Shown piece by piece: positions 2,060 to 24,733 of a DNA stretch of 64,000 bases. Below the pieces are notes generated by a model. It searched no databases. It was not told the DNA's origin and worked only from the letters and a program-made list of their open reading frames with translations. Numbering within the stretch: position 1 is the first letter of the stretch; every line of letters begins with the position of its first letter. Origin of the DNA: a virus (lineage: Duplodnaviria > Heunggongvirae > Uroviricota > Caudoviricetes). Location: the IMG/VR virus record IMGVR_UViG_3300031418_000001; one strand, given 5' to 3'. A program made the position numbers and the translations under genes.

Positions 2060-2590
2060 AGTGTACAACTCTGATTGGCTTCACTGCAAGTGAAGATAAA
2101 ATAGAACCTGATCCTATCGAAAACGTAGATGGCAGATGAGCAGACCAACAGTGCGATGAGCAAATTAGACCCGTGGTGATTTTTACAGAACACGGCAATG
2201 TGGCTCAATAAAGAACCGGATAATACCCCGTAGGTTCCTCGATAGACATATAAGGCTTTGAACCTTACCAAATGGTATAAGGGAATCTAAGGTACTTTAC
2301 TTAGTCAAGCACTCACTCTGTTTACAATATAGTTGTATCCAGAATTTGAGTGGTACTTTAGATGCTTATCAATATAGTTCATGTTGTGTTGATAAGTAGT
2401 GTAGTGATGAACTACGACCGTTGCATATGAACAGAGATAGGAAGAAACAGGGCAACCCGCTTCCGTGCTTAGTGTAATTCTCTACATGAAATGTATGACG
2501 CACCAACGTCAGGTACAATATTCGTCCCTCCAGTGGGGGATGGAAATGTATTCAGAAACCACGTCAAGTATGATTGGTTAAACTACTTAA
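2060..2590 (+). ncRNA. candidate large structured ncRNA (~530 nt)
   Basis: ORF-free, GC-richer than flanks, directly after a promoter, many hairpins. Confidence 0.55.
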
Positions 2591-2628
2591 TAATAATTAT
2601 AATAGATCTGAATTGATATGAGTACTGA

Positions 2629-3051
2629 ATGAACGTAGTGAATTCAATACGAATGAAATTCTTGACTTACGTAGTAAGGCAACTAAAAATGAGTTATAAT
2701 AAATTAGAAACCCAAGAATTAATAAAAAAATATATTTCCTTAAAATATAATATTGATATTCCTTCTTTTAATGCAGTTCTTACTATAGGTGAGAGTAAGA
2801 ATGTTTACTTTCTTGAATTAATATATCATGGTATCTGGTATTCAATAAGTAACAAACATCCGTTAATGATTCAAGAAAGTAAACAAAAGGGTTCAAGACT
2901 TCTTTATGTAGATGATATTGGGTTAACTAAAGAAGAATATTTTAATTATTCCATAATGTATAATTTCCTTGAAATTATACGTCTTGAAAATGTGAAAGAA
3001 CTAACTGAATTCATTTATAATGAACTTCTACCTTTAGTACTGGATAAGTAA
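2629..3051 (+). CDS. FN-motif paralogue family protein
   Basis: C-terminal TKEEYFNYSIMY. Confidence 0.75.
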   Translation: MNVVNSIRMKFLTYVVRQLKMSYNKLETQELIKKYISLKYNIDIPSFNAVLTIGESKNVYFLELIYHGIWYSISNKHPLMIQESKQKGSRLLYVDDIGLTKEEYFNYSIMYNFLEIIRLENVKELTEFIYNELLPLVLDK

Positions 3052-3052
3052 T

Positions 3053-3394
3053 ATGAAAAAAGATTATGGAAAATTCAAAAAGTATCTAAAAGACGAATTT
3101 AATTATGTACCTGATGGTATCTATTTCGACTTATTTGATATAGAACCAAGCTCATATTATTTTGAATTTGCATCCAGTACTAATATTCTAATTATCGAAG
3201 AAGATAAGGTTGAATTAACTGAATATGATAATCCACTAAATGTCATACATTTCAGCAGTAATGGTACAAGTACCGATGAGTACTTTAATCTTTATTTGAT
3301 TGATGAATTGGCAATTTTATCTAAAGTTGAAAATGTACAAAAATTAAGAAACCACATGAAAGAACAATTGTTGGCGGATTTGATAAAATGGTAG
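3053..3394 (+). CDS. FN-motif paralogue family protein
   Basis: STDEYFNLYLID. Confidence 0.75.
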   Translation: MKKDYGKFKKYLKDEFNYVPDGIYFDLFDIEPSSYYFEFASSTNILIIEEDKVELTEYDNPLNVIHFSSNGTSTDEYFNLYLIDELAILSKVENVQKLRNHMKEQLLADLIKW

Positions 3395-3825
3395 ATTTAG
3401 TAGATGAACGTTCAGAAGAATTAAAGAGACACTGGCTTGATGTTGAAAAGTACATTGAAAACGAACTTGGTTTTAAAATTAAAAATTTTATATGCGGTGT
3501 TAATGATGGTGGTTCTATGGTTCAATTTGAAATCAAAGAACAGAGATTTTTAATTGATCAAAAGAAAATCATAGAAAGTACCTTTGACTCAGGATACGCA
3601 CATCATCTTGTAACTCGCAGGATGGAAAGTGGTTTTAGTAATGATGAATTCTTTAATATGTCATTACAAGATGAAGTAAGTGAAGTACTGAAAGAAGAAA
3701 ATATCTCTAAAATACGAAAGTATATTAAAGATGCTTTGCAAAATTATGTATCGTACCTGATTGAACTTGAAGGTCATATAAAGTTTAAAAATAAAGATGG
3801 AGAAGAAACAAATGAAAAGTCTTAA
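3388..3825 (+). CDS. FN-motif paralogue family protein
   Basis: SNDEFFNMSLQD. Confidence 0.75.
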   Translation: MVDLVDERSEELKRHWLDVEKYIENELGFKIKNFICGVNDGGSMVQFEIKEQRFLIDQKKIIESTFDSGYAHHLVTRRMESGFSNDEFFNMSLQDEVSEVLKEENISKIRKYIKDALQNYVSYLIELEGHIKFKNKDGEETNEKS

Positions 3826-4078
3826 AGAAATGTTTAAAGCACTACCTGGAAACGTCCTTACTGAACTGAAAGCAGAGAAAGATAAGCTAAGTCTGAACTC
3901 TGTAACTAAACGTGTAGTACTGGCGGTACTGTTCCTGATTGTTACCTCTGTTCTCGGTGCAATTATTACTGGAGTATTCAGTACTGGTATCATTTCCTCT
4001 GTTCTGATGATTCTGGTAGTAACCGTTCTGCTGACAGTCTATCAAGTACTTGATCGTGCAATTGATAAAAGTGCTTAA
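3812..4078 (+). CDS. membrane protein (2 TM)
   Basis: Two hydrophobic segments; start set at ATG 3812. Confidence 0.7.
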   Translation: MKSLKEMFKALPGNVLTELKAEKDKLSLNSVTKRVVLAVLFLIVTSVLGAIITGVFSTGIISSVLMILVVTVLLTVYQVLDRAIDKSA

Positions 4079-10327: not shown

Positions 10328-10654
10328 ATGACTAAAGATAACCGCACCGAACTGATGAACCTCTTGAACCAGTTGATGGAATTCAGCTTTGATTCATTCT
10401 TCATGAAGATGATTAATAAGTCTCAGCCCTTCCTGGTTAAAGGTATTGACGTTAGTGTCAAGTGTGCTCAGGAAGTAGTTGAACACCCTGAAACCCCTGA
10501 TGAAAATACCGTGAAGATCATCGGTTCTTTACAATCTTTAATTCAAACTCTTTCTAATATTCGTTACAGTATCCGTGAGCTTTATCCACAGGAAACCACC
10601 GTTACAATGCCTAACTGGAATGCCATGATCGTCAATCCACAGGTCGTTCACTAA
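10328..10654 (+). CDS. hypothetical protein
   Basis: ORF downstream of TTGACA...CATAAT promoter near 10148. Confidence 0.7.
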   Translation: MTKDNRTELMNLLNQLMEFSFDSFFMKMINKSQPFLVKGIDVSVKCAQEVVEHPETPDENTVKIIGSLQSLIQTLSNIRYSIRELYPQETTVTMPNWNAMIVNPQVVH

Positions 10655-10845
10655 TGGTGTACGAAGAAGTAGATGTATACGAAGTACAGTTGGTTGACAG
10701 AGCTACACACACCGTGCTTGAGACTTTTGATACTGGTCAGGATCATGACGCAGCTTATCGAAAGAAAGATGAGTGGGATCTGGAATACAACGATGGAACG
10801 ATGTATACAAAAATCGAGGTCTATTCGGAAGAATTAGACGAATAA
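10654..10845 (+). CDS. hypothetical acidic protein
   Basis: Translationally coupled ORF; terminator follows at 10850-10872. Confidence 0.65.
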   Translation: MVYEEVDVYEVQLVDRATHTVLETFDTGQDHDAAYRKKDEWDLEYNDGTMYTKIEVYSEELDE

Positions 10846-10884
10846 ATGAAAAGCGGCGAAAGCCGCTTTTTTAATGGAGAAAAT

Positions 10885-11151
10885 ATGACATATCTATTAG
10901 CATGGCTTGTAATCGGCTTCATTTCTTCTGTACTAACAAGTACTTATAATACTGAAGAAGTATATGAAATGCGAATGCGTAAATACCTTTCACGTAAAGG
11001 ATTGAAACGTGAAGAACTTCCAAAGGAAGTAACATACGAAACCTATAAAATGTTTTCTTTTGTATTAGGAACAATGTATGGGATCTTTAGTATTATTGGT
11101 TTTTACAGTGTTCGTAGTGATTATATGAGAACTCAGAAAAATAAAAAATGA
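10885..11151 (+). CDS. membrane protein
   Basis: GGAG RBS before ATG 10885; two hydrophobic segments. Confidence 0.65.
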   Translation: MTYLLAWLVIGFISSVLTSTYNTEEVYEMRMRKYLSRKGLKREELPKEVTYETYKMFSFVLGTMYGIFSIIGFYSVRSDYMRTQKNKK

Positions 11152-11486
11152 ATCCAATATTTGAAGTACTCAATAATGGTAAAGGTACGGACTGTATAAA
11201 ATATGAAAGATTATATCCAGATACTTTACAGTACCCAATTGTAATTATATATTATAGTTTATACCGTTTAAGGATAACACCTGAACTATTAACTCTATAT
11301 TATGCTAACATTGATGATGGCTTTTATCATACTATATTAGATACTGTTGATGGTTATGATTCTGATGAGTACTTTAATTTATCTATGGAATATGAATTAA
11401 ATGATATTTGTCTGAAAAATAATATTGACAAAATTCGAAAAATATCGGATAATCTCTCATGTGCCTTACATGTGATTAATTTATAA
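11148..11486 (+). CDS. FN-motif paralogue family protein
   Basis: DSDEYFNLSMEY. Confidence 0.75.
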   Translation: MNPIFEVLNNGKGTDCIKYERLYPDTLQYPIVIIYYSLYRLRITPELLTLYYANIDDGFYHTILDTVDGYDSDEYFNLSMEYELNDICLKNNIDKIRKISDNLSCALHVINL

Positions 11487-11495
11487 AGGACTGAT

Positions 11496-12053
11496 ATGAA
11501 AGCACTACTGCTTAATCCTGATGTTGAGTACTCAGACGGTTATGAAAACAACCGTGATAATTATATCCAGTGTGAAGTTCTTGCGTATGATCGTGACAAA
11601 TACGTTCTGTGTAAGCATCAAGATGGTACGGTCACTGAATATAAAAGTGGTTATTTAAAGCGTATTGATAACTTTGGTCAGCTTACTTATCGTCAGTTGT
11701 TCTCGCTTCCAGTACTTAACTACGATAATTATGACGATCTTTCTAAACCTACCAAACGTCAGGTACAGAAAGAACTTAAAGATAACTATAAGTTCAAGAC
11801 TGAGTTCACTTTGTATGTTACCAATGAACCTGTAAAAGACGCAACAACAGTTATTACTACCAGTACGCTTAAACAAGCAGTTCGTGTGTTTCGTAAGTAC
11901 CAGTACGCACAGCTATCATTTAGTACTGATCGCTGGAATACAGAAGGTATCGCAGAGCGTGATAAGAAAGATGGCATATTGTATTACGATATTGATCGTC
12001 GTACAAAACGTCCTACCTATTCTTCTAAAGTACTTCGTGAATTGGAAAAGTAA
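11496..12053 (+). CDS. hypothetical protein
   Basis: AAGGA RBS, 185 aa ORF. Confidence 0.7.
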   Translation: MKALLLNPDVEYSDGYENNRDNYIQCEVLAYDRDKYVLCKHQDGTVTEYKSGYLKRIDNFGQLTYRQLFSLPVLNYDNYDDLSKPTKRQVQKELKDNYKFKTEFTLYVTNEPVKDATTVITTSTLKQAVRVFRKYQYAQLSFSTDRWNTEGIAERDKKDGILYYDIDRRTKRPTYSSKVLRELEK

Positions 12054-12162
12054 TGGTATTATTTTTAATTGTGCCAGTAATGATAGTACTGGCACTCTTG
12101 ATTAAAGTTTTAGATTTTTTCAGTACTTTATTTTGGTTCATAACGAATCACGAAAATTAAAT

Positions 12163-12192
12163 TTGAAACGTTTAAGATACTTGTGCTATACT
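12163..12192 (+). promoter_or_regulatory. TGAAAC/TATACT-class promoter
   Basis: TTGAAACG...TGTGCTATACT. Confidence 0.7.
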
Positions 12193-12204
12193 TAATATAT
12201 AGGA

Positions 12205-12489
12205 ATGACGATGAAAAACAGATTTAAGTTTTACCCAAGTGCTTTAATTATTGGAGTACTTGGTGGATTGATTGTTGGAATGTTCGCATTTCAGCCTGAA
12301 CCAAAAGCATCTGTTCCGAAAGATGTTCCACTGGAACATGTTTATCATCTTCCTTGCAGAGTTGAAGCAGAAGGTTACGAACCATCCACCACAATAAATG
12401 GTATGAGAATACCAATGATTTGCGGTTGTTCAGAACTTAAAGGCACCTGTCACCAAACACGGGAAATTAAGTATGCAATGCCAGAGTAA
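12205..12489 (+). CDS. membrane-anchored Cys-containing protein
   Basis: N-terminal TM segment. Confidence 0.65.
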   Translation: MTMKNRFKFYPSALIIGVLGGLIVGMFAFQPEPKASVPKDVPLEHVYHLPCRVEAEGYEPSTTINGMRIPMICGCSELKGTCHQTREIKYAMPE

Positions 12490-12648
12490 GATGCGTAAAA
12501 TGAAAGAAACATCAGGTTCTTATCTTATCGAACTCATTACTGAATTAAGTAATGAAGTTGGTTGTGAACCGAAAGATGTTACCGTGGATATTACGGATAC
12601 GATTGATGGCACATTTGTCGAAGTCACTGCTAATAAAGGGTAATTAAG

Positions 12649-12885
12649 ATGAGCGAAATGAACTGGCGTAAGGTACTTGCAGTGCATGTTAGTGCGGCTC
12701 CTGCTGTAACTAAATCTCCAGGATTTATTGTTTATCGTGACCCGAAAGAAGTTCTTGAAGAAAGAACAATGATCATTCATGCTATTGAAGAACATGAACG
12801 TCTCATTGCAGAAAGTATTCCAGATGAAGACGAAATAGAAGAATTCGTACTTGAACTGTATTCTTTATTTCGAGTACTTCATTAA
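12649..12885 (+). CDS. hypothetical protein
   Basis: ORF in co-oriented run. Confidence 0.65.
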   Translation: MSEMNWRKVLAVHVSAAPAVTKSPGFIVYRDPKEVLEERTMIIHAIEEHERLIAESIPDEDEIEEFVLELYSLFRVLH

Positions 12886-12893
12886 TTAAATTT

Positions 12894-13204
12894 GGCCCCT
12901 TAGCTCAGTTGGTTAGAGCAGGCAACTCATCAAATGGTGACTTTTATCAGTAATGATAATTGAAAAACTGGATGAATTCAGGGAAACCTCAGCACGTAAT
13001 GGTGGTGGCAACCGTGAGCCAAGCCTGATAAGCGTATCAGGAAGGTGCAGAGACTAAATGGTGCAACACGTTCTTGTTGCGTAATACATTGTTAGCGTCC
13101 GGCACCCTAACTATTATAGAAGGGTGGTGATATAGTCCGTACCAGTATGAAAATATTGGATAAATCGAATTGCTTGGTCACAGGTTCGAGTCCTGTAGGG
13201 GCCA
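12894..13204 (+). tRNA. tRNA-Ile2(CAU) split by a group I intron (exons 12894-12930 and 13168-13204)
   Basis: Joined exons give GGCCCCTTAGCTCAGTTGGTTAGAGCAGGCAACTCAT|AATTGCTTGGTCACAGGTTCGAGTCCTGTAGGGGCCA, close to E. coli ileX. Confidence 0.92.
12931..13167 (+). mobile_element. group I self-splicing intron (237 nt, no internal ORF)
   Basis: P AATTCAGGGAAAC, Q AACCGTGAGCCAAG, R GTGCAGAGACTA, S GATATAGTCC, P9 GAAA loop, U-G at 5' splice site, terminal G. Confidence 0.93.
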
Positions 13205-13232
13205 CTAATTTTCAAGGATGGATGATATATGA

Positions 13233-13637
13233 ATGGAAGAATGGAGAGAATTATTTGTAAGTGATATTGGTTTAACTATATTAGTGTCCAATTTAGGAAC
13301 TATAAAAACCAAAGATAAAGTTATAACATGCAGAAATCAATTTAATACTTATCAAAAGTTAATACCTGGAATAACTAAAAGTCCGGCACTTAATGGATCA
13401 GCAGGTTATTATCAAGTACATCTTCATAATAATGGTAAGAAGAAGAGTAAGTATGTTCATCGGTTGGTATGGATAGCTTTTAATGGAGAGATACCAGATG
13501 GTTTTGAAATAGATCATGATGATTGTGATAAAAGTAATAATTGTCTCGATAATTTAAAACTTTTAACTCGAAAACAAAATATGGAAAAGATGTTTAAGTT
13601 GAATCCTCATATTAAATATAATTTGCATGGGAAATAA
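13233..13637 (+). CDS. free-standing HNH homing endonuclease (NUMOD4-like N-terminus)
   Basis: EEWR..VSNLG, VHRLVWIAF..EIDHDDCDKSNNCLDNL. Confidence 0.9.
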   Translation: MEEWRELFVSDIGLTILVSNLGTIKTKDKVITCRNQFNTYQKLIPGITKSPALNGSAGYYQVHLHNNGKKKSKYVHRLVWIAFNGEIPDGFEIDHDDCDKSNNCLDNLKLLTRKQNMEKMFKLNPHIKYNLHGK

Positions 13638-13809
13638 AGTGAAATACATTGTTGTTAGTGTTATCTTTTTAGTACTTTCATTTGTGATCATTAATTTTGT
13701 AGGTACTGAAAAAGTGGCACATAACTTACTTCTAAGTGTTATTGCCTTATATGTGCTGGTTGAATCTATTGATCAATTAGTATCTCGTACTCTGTTCAAA
13801 GAGAATTGA
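13627..13809 (+). CDS. small membrane protein
   Basis: Two hydrophobic segments. Confidence 0.6.
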   Translation: MGNKVKYIVVSVIFLVLSFVIINFVGTEKVAHNLLLSVIALYVLVESIDQLVSRTLFKEN

Positions 13810-14258
13810 TTATGCCATTAATAGTTCAGATAGTTCTTTTTGTTGTGTCGGCTTTAGTAGTAGTGATAATTTCTGAAATTACCTACGCCCTGATTAATAA
13901 GAAAGTACAGTCATGGATCTCAGACCGATGTTCTGAAATCAACAAAGAACTCAAAGATATAGGGTTCCGTTACCGTGAAGGTGCTGAGTACCGGTTTATT
14001 TTTCATAAGTACGATGGATTTTATATTGCAACTGATTCATTAAACGACCAAAGACGTACTAAATTAATGAGTGCGTATAAGTTGCGTAAAGTACTTTTCA
14101 AGATGTATGAAACTCCATACAATGAAGTACTTGAACCTATGTTTATTGATTATGAAAACAGAAAAAAAGAGATAGCTGAAAAGCAAAATAAAGAACGTTT
14201 TTCTGATAATAACTATAAACGTGCAGTTAAATTTAAACGCCCTGATGAGGACAAATGA
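13806..14258 (+). CDS. membrane-anchored hypothetical protein
   Basis: N-terminal TM segment. Confidence 0.65.
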   Translation: MIMPLIVQIVLFVVSALVVVIISEITYALINKKVQSWISDRCSEINKELKDIGFRYREGAEYRFIFHKYDGFYIATDSLNDQRRTKLMSAYKLRKVLFKMYETPYNEVLEPMFIDYENRKKEIAEKQNKERFSDNNYKRAVKFKRPDEDK

Positions 14259-14470
14259 TGCGTACTATTAAACCTGAAGTACTTGAGAAAATGTCATTTG
14301 AACGTCTCAAGAACCATCGTCGTGCTGTACTGGCCCATATTGGTGCTACTTTTTATGAGTACACACCTGCACGGGTTCCCAACGAAAAGCATGGCTCAGA
14401 GTACTATCAGTACTGTGTTTCTTATCGTGATACAGTAAACTATTACCACGATCAAAAGAAACCGAAATGA
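14255..14470 (+). CDS. hypothetical protein
   Basis: Coupled ORF. Confidence 0.65.
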   Translation: MMRTIKPEVLEKMSFERLKNHRRAVLAHIGATFYEYTPARVPNEKHGSEYYQYCVSYRDTVNYYHDQKKPK

Positions 14471-14739
14471 AACTGTTCTCTGGTTCAGAACTATTTGAAC
14501 TCAAAGCCACTCACGGCATTCCCTGGGATATTACACTGCAACATGTAATCTCCAAAGGTTATACCGTGAACTGGACTGAATTCATTGATTGTGCAAGAAA
14601 AAACAAGTGGTGGGATTTTCAGACTCTTGAAGCAATTAATTTTGTACTTCAGGATGTTATTGAAGATAAAAATGAAGTACAAGAAATCATTACCAGAATG
14701 AAATTGTATATTCTTAAAAACCCTCACCCTGAATTATAA
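14467..14739 (+). CDS. stand-alone AlaRS helical-subdomain-like protein
   Basis: SGSELFELKATHGIPWDIT..KGYTVNWTEF resembles the AlaRS segment GEDAFKLYDTYGFPLDLT..G.TVD..GF. Confidence 0.55.
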   Translation: MKLFSGSELFELKATHGIPWDITLQHVISKGYTVNWTEFIDCARKNKWWDFQTLEAINFVLQDVIEDKNEVQEIITRMKLYILKNPHPEL

Positions 14740-14747
14740 TCGAATAA

Positions 14748-14800
14748 GCGGTATTGGTATATTAGGTTATGCAATCGGTTCTAATCCGGTATACCGCTCA
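14748..14800 (+). ncRNA. tRNA-like RNA lacking the anticodon arm
   Basis: GCGGTAT/ATACCGC acceptor, D-like arm, ATCGG-TTCTAAT-CCGGT T arm, no anticodon arm. Confidence 0.6.
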
Positions 14801-14814
14801 ATTGAGAATTAAAT

Positions 14815-15219
14815 ATGCTTTGGATTGCTATAGCATTACTAATCTTATCCATTTTCTTATACTCTCCTGTTAAAAATTACTACAAATCCAAGACTGTATT
14901 GAAACAGGCAGAATCTATTTCTGCACGTAATAATAAGTTCATTCATAAAAACATTAAGTACATCATTGAGTACTTTACCAATGATACGGACTTGAATCTA
15001 ATTGTTAATTATAAAAATGATGTTATAGTCGGGTTTTTTATCTCCGTCAAAAACGATTGTTATCTTCATACATATCTTTCTCCAAATATTCCTACTACTT
15101 CATACGAACTTGAAATAGACGAGTTTTGTTTATTTCTGTCGGCATACACTGATGATATTAACGATAGAGAGAATCTTGTAAAAAATATCATGAGAGAACA
15201 TTTGGAAAGATTGAAATGA
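14815..15219 (+). CDS. membrane-anchored hypothetical protein
   Basis: N-terminal TM segment. Confidence 0.65.
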   Translation: MLWIAIALLILSIFLYSPVKNYYKSKTVLKQAESISARNNKFIHKNIKYIIEYFTNDTDLNLIVNYKNDVIVGFFISVKNDCYLHTYLSPNIPTTSYELEIDEFCLFLSAYTDDINDRENLVKNIMREHLERLK

Positions 15220-24511: not shown

Positions 24512-24733
24512 GGGGCATGTTCCAAGAGGGTCGATTGGGCGAATAAACTATGAACGTCGCTGGCGTAAAAGCCGTCTGTTAACTGAATCACTGAATGTCT
24601 CAGAAGCACCTATAGCGGCCTGACAACAGGCGGGGAGAAACAAGCAAGGGAAGCGTAGTCTAAGGTGAGGAAGGCGTATAGCGAGAGTTATACGTAGCAG
24701 AAAGTACGGGTTCGAATCCCGTATGCTCCACAA
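24512..24733 (+). ncRNA. ssrA: compact tmRNA; tag frame 24585-24623 (A)ESLNVSEAPIAA*
   Basis: GGGGCAT/ATGCTCC-A acceptor with G3.U70, T arm, pk1-like hairpin, TTAACT upstream of the resume codon, tag ending IAA-stop. Confidence 0.85.

Follow-up and report, generated by a model that had tools for sequence, protein, structure and literature searches.

The locus examined here raises the question of how an intron that encodes no protein came to lie in the anticodon loop of a phage transfer RNA (tRNA) gene, and what it owes to the endonuclease gene that directly follows. The locus lies in IMGVR_UViG_3300031418_000001, an IMG/VR record of a giant phage assigned to the Caudoviricetes, of which one stretch of 64,000 nucleotides (nt; hereafter the window) was analyzed. 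The sequence revealed a group I intron of apparent phage type (IA-like, with a P7.1 hairpin) and without an open reading frame (ORF), which interrupts a tRNA-Ile2(CAU) gene between U36 and A37. Comparison with other phages likewise marked the downstream HNH gene as a probable free-standing homing endonuclease gene tied to the tRNA(CAU) locus. We consider it probable, at roughly 0.6, that the intron and the HNH gene are selfish elements nested at one phage tRNA gene and that the intron spreads in trans as a passenger of HNH-driven conversion.

The sequence-only reading, a first inspection of the DNA that used no database searches, had placed a group I intron after the CAU of an ileX-like tRNA, and this placement held. 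The Rfam group I intron model (RF00028) matched positions 12919-13159 over its full length with 76.6 bits and an E-value of 1.1e-17 (gathering score, 50 bits). Once joined, the two exons, of which the first ends with ACTCAT, were folded by ARAGORN into a canonical 75-nt cloverleaf with anticodon CAU. The intron ends with a terminal G, and its 5' splice site is found in helix P1 at the wobble pair U12930.G12937. When the spliced tRNA was compared with all 5,426 complete E. coli genomes, the best matches were annotated as tRNA-Ile and were 89-91% identical over 75 nt. Thus, the gene encodes an ileX-type tRNA-Ile2 rather than a tRNA-Met. The pairs C4-G69 and C5-G68, which we take to be TilS determinants in tRNA-Ile2, are both present, and the CCA end is not encoded. 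Given that the G+C content of the window is only 34.5% and that AUA makes up 24% of its Ile codons (20 per 1000 codons), a phage tRNA-Ile2 is plausibly of use for reading AUA. Scanning of the locus for promoters and terminators gave no informative signal.

The structure of the intron was analyzed with an alignment of 12 introns, which included the window intron, four other copies from phage tRNA genes, three from terminase genes and four from capsid-like genes of IMG/VR contigs. RNAalifold recovered P2, P3, P4, P5, P6/P6a, P7.1/P7.1a, P8 and P9 from this alignment, and P1 and the P7 pseudoknot were added to the structure before the pairs were counted. Standard pairs were found in 95.2% of the 756 cells (63 pairs in 12 introns), compared to 30-44% when the partners were slid by 1-3 columns. 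Changes on both sides were found in 36 of the 63 pairs, and none of 500 shuffles reached the observed values. P7 and its flanks were invariant in the alignment and also matched those of Azoarcus-type ribozymes. All the helices and motifs that had been named from the letters alone (P1, P3, P7, P8, a P9 with a GNRA loop, an extra hairpin between P7 and P3, and the terminal G) are present. The extra hairpin, P7.1/P7.1a, is an insertion relative to the Rfam consensus, and P7.1 and P7.2 are named among the peripheral elements that define classes of group I introns (PMC3984707). By P7.1/P7.1a, the intron appears to be of phage type and IA-like, an assignment made from helix features rather than from formal subgrouping. 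The gene call in the JGI record of a 34-amino-acid ORF within the intron (12953-13057) was rejected: it spans P2 to P7 and is unsupported, and the intron was taken as ORF-less. P4 of the window intron contains a GxG mismatch, which C13012 (T in the other copies) may offset via a shifted register of five pairs. Because the intron sequence is letter-for-letter the same in seven independent assemblies, the mismatch is not a sequencing error.

A natural allele without the intron was identified by scanning JGI metagenome contigs for the predicted junction of exon 1 and exon 2. The single match was a contig (L145) from Ga0308167, with 98.3% identity to the window across 3.9 kb of flanks (BLAST). Positions 1-2370 of L145 correspond to 10561-12930 of the window, positions 2371-2408 to 13168-13205 at 100% identity, and positions 2410-3938 to 13620-15148, with position 2409 as a single unaligned base. 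L145 lacks exactly the 237-nt intron and the 414-nt HNH cassette, and its uninterrupted tRNA gene is 100% identical to the exons of the window allele. The intron and the HNH gene are both carried by a contig from the sister sample Ga0308168. As exon 1 and exon 2 are contiguous in L145, both intron junctions are fixed to the nucleotide; as L145 has neither element, the intron and the HNH gene are dispensable insertions, and by this comparison they appear to be recent and selfish. The co-occurrence of the two elements in relatives, which the sequence-only reading had named as a check, is thus borne out in the closest relative, where both are missing together.

The Logan assembly of run SRR14295792 may point to a further intron-less junction. 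One contig of this run has 12930 as its last base; a second has 13168 as its first and continues through the HNH gene. Such breaks are what a coexisting intron-less junction would give, because an exon1-exon2 junction that coexists with the intron form splits the de Bruijn graph at these positions. A repeated intron was rejected as their cause, since the unitigs would then end approximately 30 nt inside the intron and not at the junctions. The source of the junction in this run would be a genome with the HNH gene and no intron, or else spliced RNA. Two further observations were made at the 5' side of the locus. Of the 41 differences that separate the window from L145 upstream, five fall within 20 nt (12846-12865), at the end of an ORF of 78 amino acids and 30-50 nt before the tRNA gene; this cluster may be a recombination boundary. 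In run SRR8871578, a Logan contig (L038) ends at window position 12922, 8 nt before the 5' splice site and in the anticodon stem, which could be caused by a co-occurring variant or by low coverage.

These data bear on whether the intron is still active. A dead relic intron, with the split tRNA gene as a pseudogene, would be in line with the mismatch in P4 and the lack of an encoded CCA end. We find this scarcely credible, as all other helices are intact, the core is the same as in introns of terminase and capsid genes, which are essential, the seven assemblies agree in sequence, the exons are identical to those of the uninterrupted allele, and the contigs of SRR14295792 end at both junctions.

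The second element, the HNH gene, starts 27 nt after the tRNA gene and runs over the start of the following ORF (13627) with its final codons. Its product matched Pfam HNH_3 (3.8e-19, 68.5 bits; cut-off, 24.8), while the match to a NUMOD4-type DNA-binding module at the N-terminus scored 19.2 bits, which is under the cut-off of 23.4. The best relative of solved structure was I-HmuI (PDB 1U3E; E 8.6e-9 over residues 57-121). Because the catalytic His-Asn-Asn residues (H95, N107 and N116) are invariant among 10 HNH homologues, the 134-amino-acid protein looks like an intact I-HmuI-like enzyme. That the gene is free-standing and lies directly downstream, as had been read from the letters, was borne out.

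Full-length homologues of this HNH protein (42-55% identity; type A hereafter) adjoin tRNA(CAU) genes in seven of eight contexts from at least four phage lineages, and most of these tRNA genes are uninterrupted. The HNH gene is downstream of tRNA(CAU) in the window, in OU509535, where the tRNA gene is also split by an intron, in the T5-like phage Kenya-K20 and in L018. It is upstream, either overlapping the tRNA gene or within approximately 130 nt of it, in the Kuttervirus Cba120, L016 and L017. The exception is L015, in which the homologue follows a tRNA-Arg gene. The tie to tRNA(CAU) is limited to full-length, close homologues. The HNH locus was covered to at least 80% in 11 of 269 Kuttervirus-type and 2 of 420 T5-type records. 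Comparison of the Kuttervirus tRNA alleles with the HNH gene (Cba120) and those without it (FEC14 and ECML-4) revealed that their 3' halves are identical and that their differences fall in the 5' strand of the acceptor stem, the D loop and the anticodon stem, i.e., the half next to the HNH gene. Given its presence or absence among close relatives and its habitual tRNA(CAU) neighborhood, the HNH gene is best regarded as a candidate free-standing homing endonuclease gene tied to this locus. It should be noted that the Rfam tRNA model matches 140 nt of L017 (821-960) with 50.7 bits; the match overlaps the 3' end of the HNH homologue and immediately precedes the tRNA(CAU) gene, and it may represent another tRNA gene with an insert.

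How the two elements are distributed relative to each other carries the argument further. At least three more HNH lineages that have only the catalytic core in common are found on the same tRNA flank: type B (RaK2, Turkey5 and TH47), type C (Muenster, RCIP0023 and WPEC5) and hegA of BF23, which directly follows tRNA-Ile2. In all four intron-bearing configurations an HNH gene of type A, B or C lies within approximately 240 nt downstream; the intron is paired with type A in the window and OU509535, with type B in Turkey5 and TH47, and with type C in Muenster and RCIP0023. Intron-less alleles with an HNH gene are found in RaK2 (type B) and WPEC5 (type C) as well as beside most of the type A genes, and types B and C therefore occur with both intron-plus and intron-minus alleles. 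Intron-less tRNA(CAU) alleles without any HNH gene are found in vB_Ec-M-J and L145. HNH genes are thus found without an intron, and an intron without an HNH gene was not seen among these alleles, which fits an intron that depends on neighboring endonucleases; an endonuclease that depends on the intron would fit this distribution less well. The RefSeq record of RaK2 contains the intron-less tRNA(CAU) gene, unannotated, just upstream of its HNH gene (L009 1400-1477), and WPEC5 contains an unannotated tRNA-Asn gene (L010 1841-1925).

Most likely, then, the intron hitch-hikes on HNH-driven gene conversion. In the proposed mechanism, the precursor tRNA would splice itself with guanosine, with the U.G pair presented by P1 and G13167 serving as omega G, while the anticodon stem would hold the exons together. 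After trimming of the ends, addition of CCA and formation of lysidine by the host TilS, the tRNA would read AUA. During mixed infection, the HNH enzyme would nick or cut the tRNA(CAU) locus of a competing phage that has no HNH gene, such as one with the L145-type allele, and repair from the HNH-bearing genome would copy the HNH gene and co-convert the adjacent tRNA gene with its intron. Through this co-conversion the ORF-less intron would spread in trans as a passenger. The donor could be immune to its own enzyme because the intron splits the site, because insertion of the HNH gene splits a site at the 3' end of the tRNA gene, or because nicking is tolerated. Cutting of tRNA genes followed by co-conversion of the tRNA region is known for SegB of T4 (PMC2330249), and collaborative homing has been reviewed (PMC3984707).

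Several points weigh against this hitch-hiking reading. Splicing of the intron and site-specific cutting by the HNH clade are both predictions, and P4 of the intron carries the mismatch described above. The absence of both elements from one sister strain could be the result of two separate events. Were L145, which comes from a metagenome collection, derived from RNA, its missing intron could reflect splicing, although the missing HNH gene and the divergence of 1.7% would still mark a different strain. The HNH contexts compared are few and are not phylogenetically independent. The T5-like phage Gostya9, which has no HNH gene, is almost identical to the HNH-bearing Kenya-K20, and no co-conversion tract is visible between them. 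Near the distant HNH_3 proteins in IMG/VR (L026-L029), neither a tRNA gene nor an intron was found.

The sequence-only reading had gone further and suggested that the intron protects its allele by breaking the cut site. As a general need this did not hold, as type A HNH genes lie beside uninterrupted tRNA(CAU) genes in T5-like phages, Kuttervirus and three uncultured phages. For the phage of the window it is possible: because its exons are the same as those of L145, only the intron separates the two alleles within the tRNA gene. Strict collaborative homing, in which the recognition site of the HNH enzyme would be the unsplit ileX-type anticodon stem-loop DNA, at the point of intron insertion, and the intron would confer immunity on the donor genome, builds on this point and has a precedent in F-CphI with the psbA intron, as cited in PMC3984707. 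The five uninterrupted tRNA(CAU) alleles beside type A HNH genes all contain C31..G39 (CCTCATAAG), while A31..U39, the ileX type, is retained in the two intron-split type A alleles and in the Kuttervirus alleles without the HNH gene. The difference in the anticodon stem between the Kuttervirus alleles with and without the HNH gene also fits such a recognition site. We nevertheless regard strict collaborative homing as possible rather than likely. The type A genes are mostly found beside uninterrupted tRNA(CAU) genes, C31-G39 is also found in Gostya9 and vB_Ec-M-J, both of which are without an HNH gene, and insertion of the HNH gene at the 3' end of the tRNA gene could itself destroy a site. 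The intron-less junction of SRR14295792, unless it is RNA, seems to be linked to an HNH-bearing genome. Moreover, nickases of the I-HmuI type are reported to nick their own intron-containing DNA as well. The proposal that C31-G39 is a substitution that confers immunity to the HNH enzyme is weakened by the same two HNH-less phages. A more elaborate arrangement, which we consider doubtful, is that tRNA-Ile2, intron and HNH gene form a three-part selfish cassette with the intron as the immunity element. In such a cassette, the HNH enzyme would nick the uninterrupted ileX-type anticodon stem-loop DNA of competing phages and possibly also the 90%-identical ileX/ileY genes of the host, and only intron-split or C31-G39 alleles would escape. 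If so, the ribozyme would be a DNA-level antidote to a nuclease that targets a tRNA gene.

The intron and the HNH gene could also be independent selfish elements that share a hot spot, with the intron moving alone by reverse splicing or general recombination and gaining nothing from the HNH gene. That tRNA(CAU)/tRNA-Ile2 is flanked by no fewer than four unrelated lineages of HNH genes (types A, B and C and hegA of T5/BF23) and that the intron is found with three of them is consistent with this explanation, as are the differing histories of the core and the exons of the OU509535 intron (see below) and the lack of an adjacent HNH gene in the stretches read around the related terminase and capsid introns. 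We judge it rather improbable, given that an HNH gene lies just downstream of every intron-bearing tRNA allele seen, that several intron-less alleles have none, and that both elements are absent together from L145, the closest relative. Still less probable by far is that the arrangement is adaptive, with the HNH enzyme aiding amplification or exchange of tRNA genes against tRNA-targeting defenses, or with the intron timing or shielding the production of tRNA-Ile2. Phage tRNA arrays are amplified through the action of SegB, which also drives escape from defenses that cleave tRNA (PMC13096335), and AUA is heavily used in the window. SegB, however, has no isotype preference, whereas the HNH clade is tied to one tRNA; L145, a strain 98% identical to that of the window, manages without both elements; and no second copy of the tRNA-Ile2 gene, i.e., no duplication, was seen within the window.

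Table 1. Positions in the window of the split tRNA-Ile2(CAU) gene, the structural elements of its intron and the adjoining HNH gene.
Feature	Position	Strand	Description and basis
tRNA-Ile2(CAU) exon 1	12894..12930	+	Acceptor 5' strand, D arm, anticodon stem 5' strand, CUCAU; ARAGORN, L145
Group I intron	12931..13167	+	237 nt, P1-P9, terminal G; Rfam, covariation, absence from L145
P1	12927-31/12936-40	+	Exon UCAU and intron C pair with GGUGA; both-sided changes in 4 of 5 pairs
P2 hairpin, GUAA loop	12944..12959	+	Both-sided changes in 5 of 6 pairs
P3	12968-74/13096-102	+	RNAalifold and covariation
P4-P5-P6/P6a domain	12978-13046	+	GxG mismatch 12981 x 13014 in P4
P7	13052-56 GACUA/13133-37 UAGUC	+	Guanosine-binding helix; invariant in all 12 introns
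P7.1/P7.1a hairpin between P7 and P3'	13057-13090	+	34 nt; both-sided changes in 8 of 9 pairs
P8	13103-08/13121-26	+	Part of the 13096..13159 block
J8/7 and P7 3' strand	13127-13137	+	
P9, GAAA loop	13142-48/13153-59	+	
tRNA-Ile2 exon 2	13168..13205	+	AA of the anticodon loop, 3' strand of the anticodon stem, T arm, acceptor 3' strand, discriminator A, then C; ARAGORN, L145
HNH cassette	13206..13619	+	414 nt absent from L145 (BLAST)
I-HmuI-like HNH gene	13233..13637	+	134 amino acids, free-standing; Pfam HNH_3, PDB 1U3E

The closest relatives of the window intron are found in phages. Introns approximately 81% identical to it were identified in the tRNA(CAU) genes of 7 of 50,697 deposited phage records, all from RaK2/PBECO4-like jumbo phages: the Klebsiella phages Muenster, phiKp_21, RCIP0023, KP13-7 and OU509535 and the E. 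coli phages Turkey5 and TH47. The split gene is unannotated in the records of Muenster, Turkey5 and RCIP0023, which means that the tRNA-Ile2 of these phages has been missed. The core of the OU509535 intron is 91% identical to that of Muenster, while its exons, P1 loop and P9 differ; this mismatch in kinship suggests separate histories for the intron and the exons. The OU509535 locus (L012 1179-1890) is a mosaic: its HNH gene is of the window type, its tRNA body differs from that of Muenster and its P9 resembles that of a Vibrio terminase intron. The ORF-less introns in the terminase genes of Vibrio phages are 71% identical to the window intron overall and 80% over the core, and further relatives are found in the capsid-like genes of IMG/VR contigs. 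The introns of Staphylococcus Kayvirus are more distant, with 72-77% identity over only 82-120 nt. The terminase large-subunit genes of the Vibrio phages vB_VpaM_R16F (L003 1744-4234) and VnaP (L004 1744-3999) are split by several group I introns, with four Rfam intron matches in R16F and three in VnaP, and their pieces are annotated as separate coding sequences for a "terminase large subunit".

According to a review published in 2014, all the phage group I introns then known were in protein-coding genes, despite the many tRNA genes in phages (PMC3984707), and the survey of tRNA introns from 2020 covered bacterial and archaeal genome assemblies only (10.1101/2020.01.27.920355). We found no published phage tRNA group I intron in the full-text literature, whose coverage leaves out most subscription journals, and no mention of one in the paper on the RaK2-like phage CBB or in a survey of jumbo phages. 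In this locus, the tRNA gene of a phage contains an intron of phage type, and its site is the one also used by the unrelated Azoarcus-type intron. What is new here is another phage lineage, a natural pair of filled and empty alleles, and the asymmetric distribution of the intron and the HNH genes. At 98% identity, the two alleles are ready donor and recipient substrates for work on homing. The tie of the HNH clade to tRNA(CAU) across T5-like phages, Kuttervirus and jumbo phages makes a testable case of an isotype-specific homing endonuclease and may show how ORF-less introns spread in trans.

Two other features of the window are recorded here. At 24650-24731, ARAGORN reported a "tRNA-???" with a four-base anticodon (gaga), which was not reported by the Rfam tRNA model. 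Window positions 2094-2682 have matches of 79-85% identity in many jumbo phages of approximately 350 kb, including Xanthomonas phage XaC1, E. coli phages JNE01, ph0011 and EJP2, and Erwinia phage Hallingskeid, where the region is unannotated or hypothetical; it is possibly a conserved non-coding RNA.

Among known systems, the intron of the pre-tRNA-Ile(CAU) of Azoarcus sp. BH72 (IC3) is the one with which the sequence-only reading had drawn a parallel. Among 101 sampled genomes from a single bacterial family, four tRNA(CAU) genes (L140 and L142-L144) were found with introns of 204-205 nt at the same site as in the window, so the parallel stands for the insertion site. Like the window intron, the Azoarcus-type introns are ORF-less, follow U36 in the same type of host gene, have a U at position -1 and a terminal G, and have a nearly identical P7 and J6/7 core. 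In contrast, they are chromosomal with no HNH neighbor noted, P7 leads straight into P3', and their P2 and P3 are different. Membership of the window intron in the Azoarcus/IC3 group was rejected given its covarying 34-nt hairpin between P7 and P3', an identity of 48-52% and the compact bacterial core of approximately 205 nt. The intron appears instead to be of phage type with P7.1. This setting is named Ile2.5Ug, and the catalogued Ile2.5Ug introns are recorded as IC3 (Williams 2020, 10.1101/2020.01.27.920355). A genome of the same bacterial family (L138) contains, at the same site of a tRNA(CAU) gene, an IA-like intron of 275 nt (1493-1767 on the - strand) with 63% identity to that of the window. 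Like the window intron, it contains GUGACUUUC-P2 as well as the GAAUUCAGGGAAACC motif, and P7 and P3' are separated by a hairpin; its P8 and P9 regions, however, are longer, and it lies next to rpoD with no HNH gene in the 3.3 kb read. Two structurally different lineages, Azoarcus-type and IA-like, therefore use the tRNA(CAU) site. Scanning of bacterial genome contigs for ACYGGATGAATTNNNGGGAAA gave 91 matches, none of which had a downstream GATATAGTC or lay in a split tRNA gene, and these are thus chance matches; the scan is no proof that the family is absent from bacteria, as L138 is a more distant bacterial relative.

The phage introns in protein-coding genes (the terminase introns of Vibrio phages R16F, VnaP and 1.187.O and those in the capsid-like genes of IMG/VR) are also ORF-less and have every helix of the window intron including P7.1, with the Staphylococcus Kayvirus/Twort-like introns as more distant kin of the same family. 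They differ from the window intron in their protein-coding hosts, the classical setting of phage introns, and in a P1 that pairs with other exon sequences. The HNH gene, in turn, resembles segB of T4 and hegA (F-Tfl) of T5/BF23 in being a free-standing homing endonuclease gene in a tRNA cluster, and hegA of BF23 (NC_042564) also lies directly after tRNA-Ile2. Unlike the HNH protein, SegB belongs to the GIY-YIG enzymes, and its tRNA specificity is broad (PMC2330249); HegA has only the HNH core in common with it, and no intron is found in the SegB and hegA cases. With I-HmuI (PDB 1U3E), the HNH nickase of Bacillus phage SPO1, the window protein shares the positions of the catalytic His-Asn-Asn; I-HmuI, however, is encoded inside an intron and has a C-terminal DNA-binding extension, whereas the window enzyme is free-standing and short. 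The arrangement as a whole resembles that of F-CphI and the psbA intron of cyanophages, in which an ORF-less intron also lies next to a free-standing endonuclease gene with presence/absence polymorphism, and for which homing in trans (Zeng, Bonocora and Shub 2009) is described in a review (PMC3984707). The window differs from the cyanophages in having a tRNA gene as the target and, as the endonuclease, an I-HmuI-like HNH protein whose clade is also found beside uninterrupted alleles.

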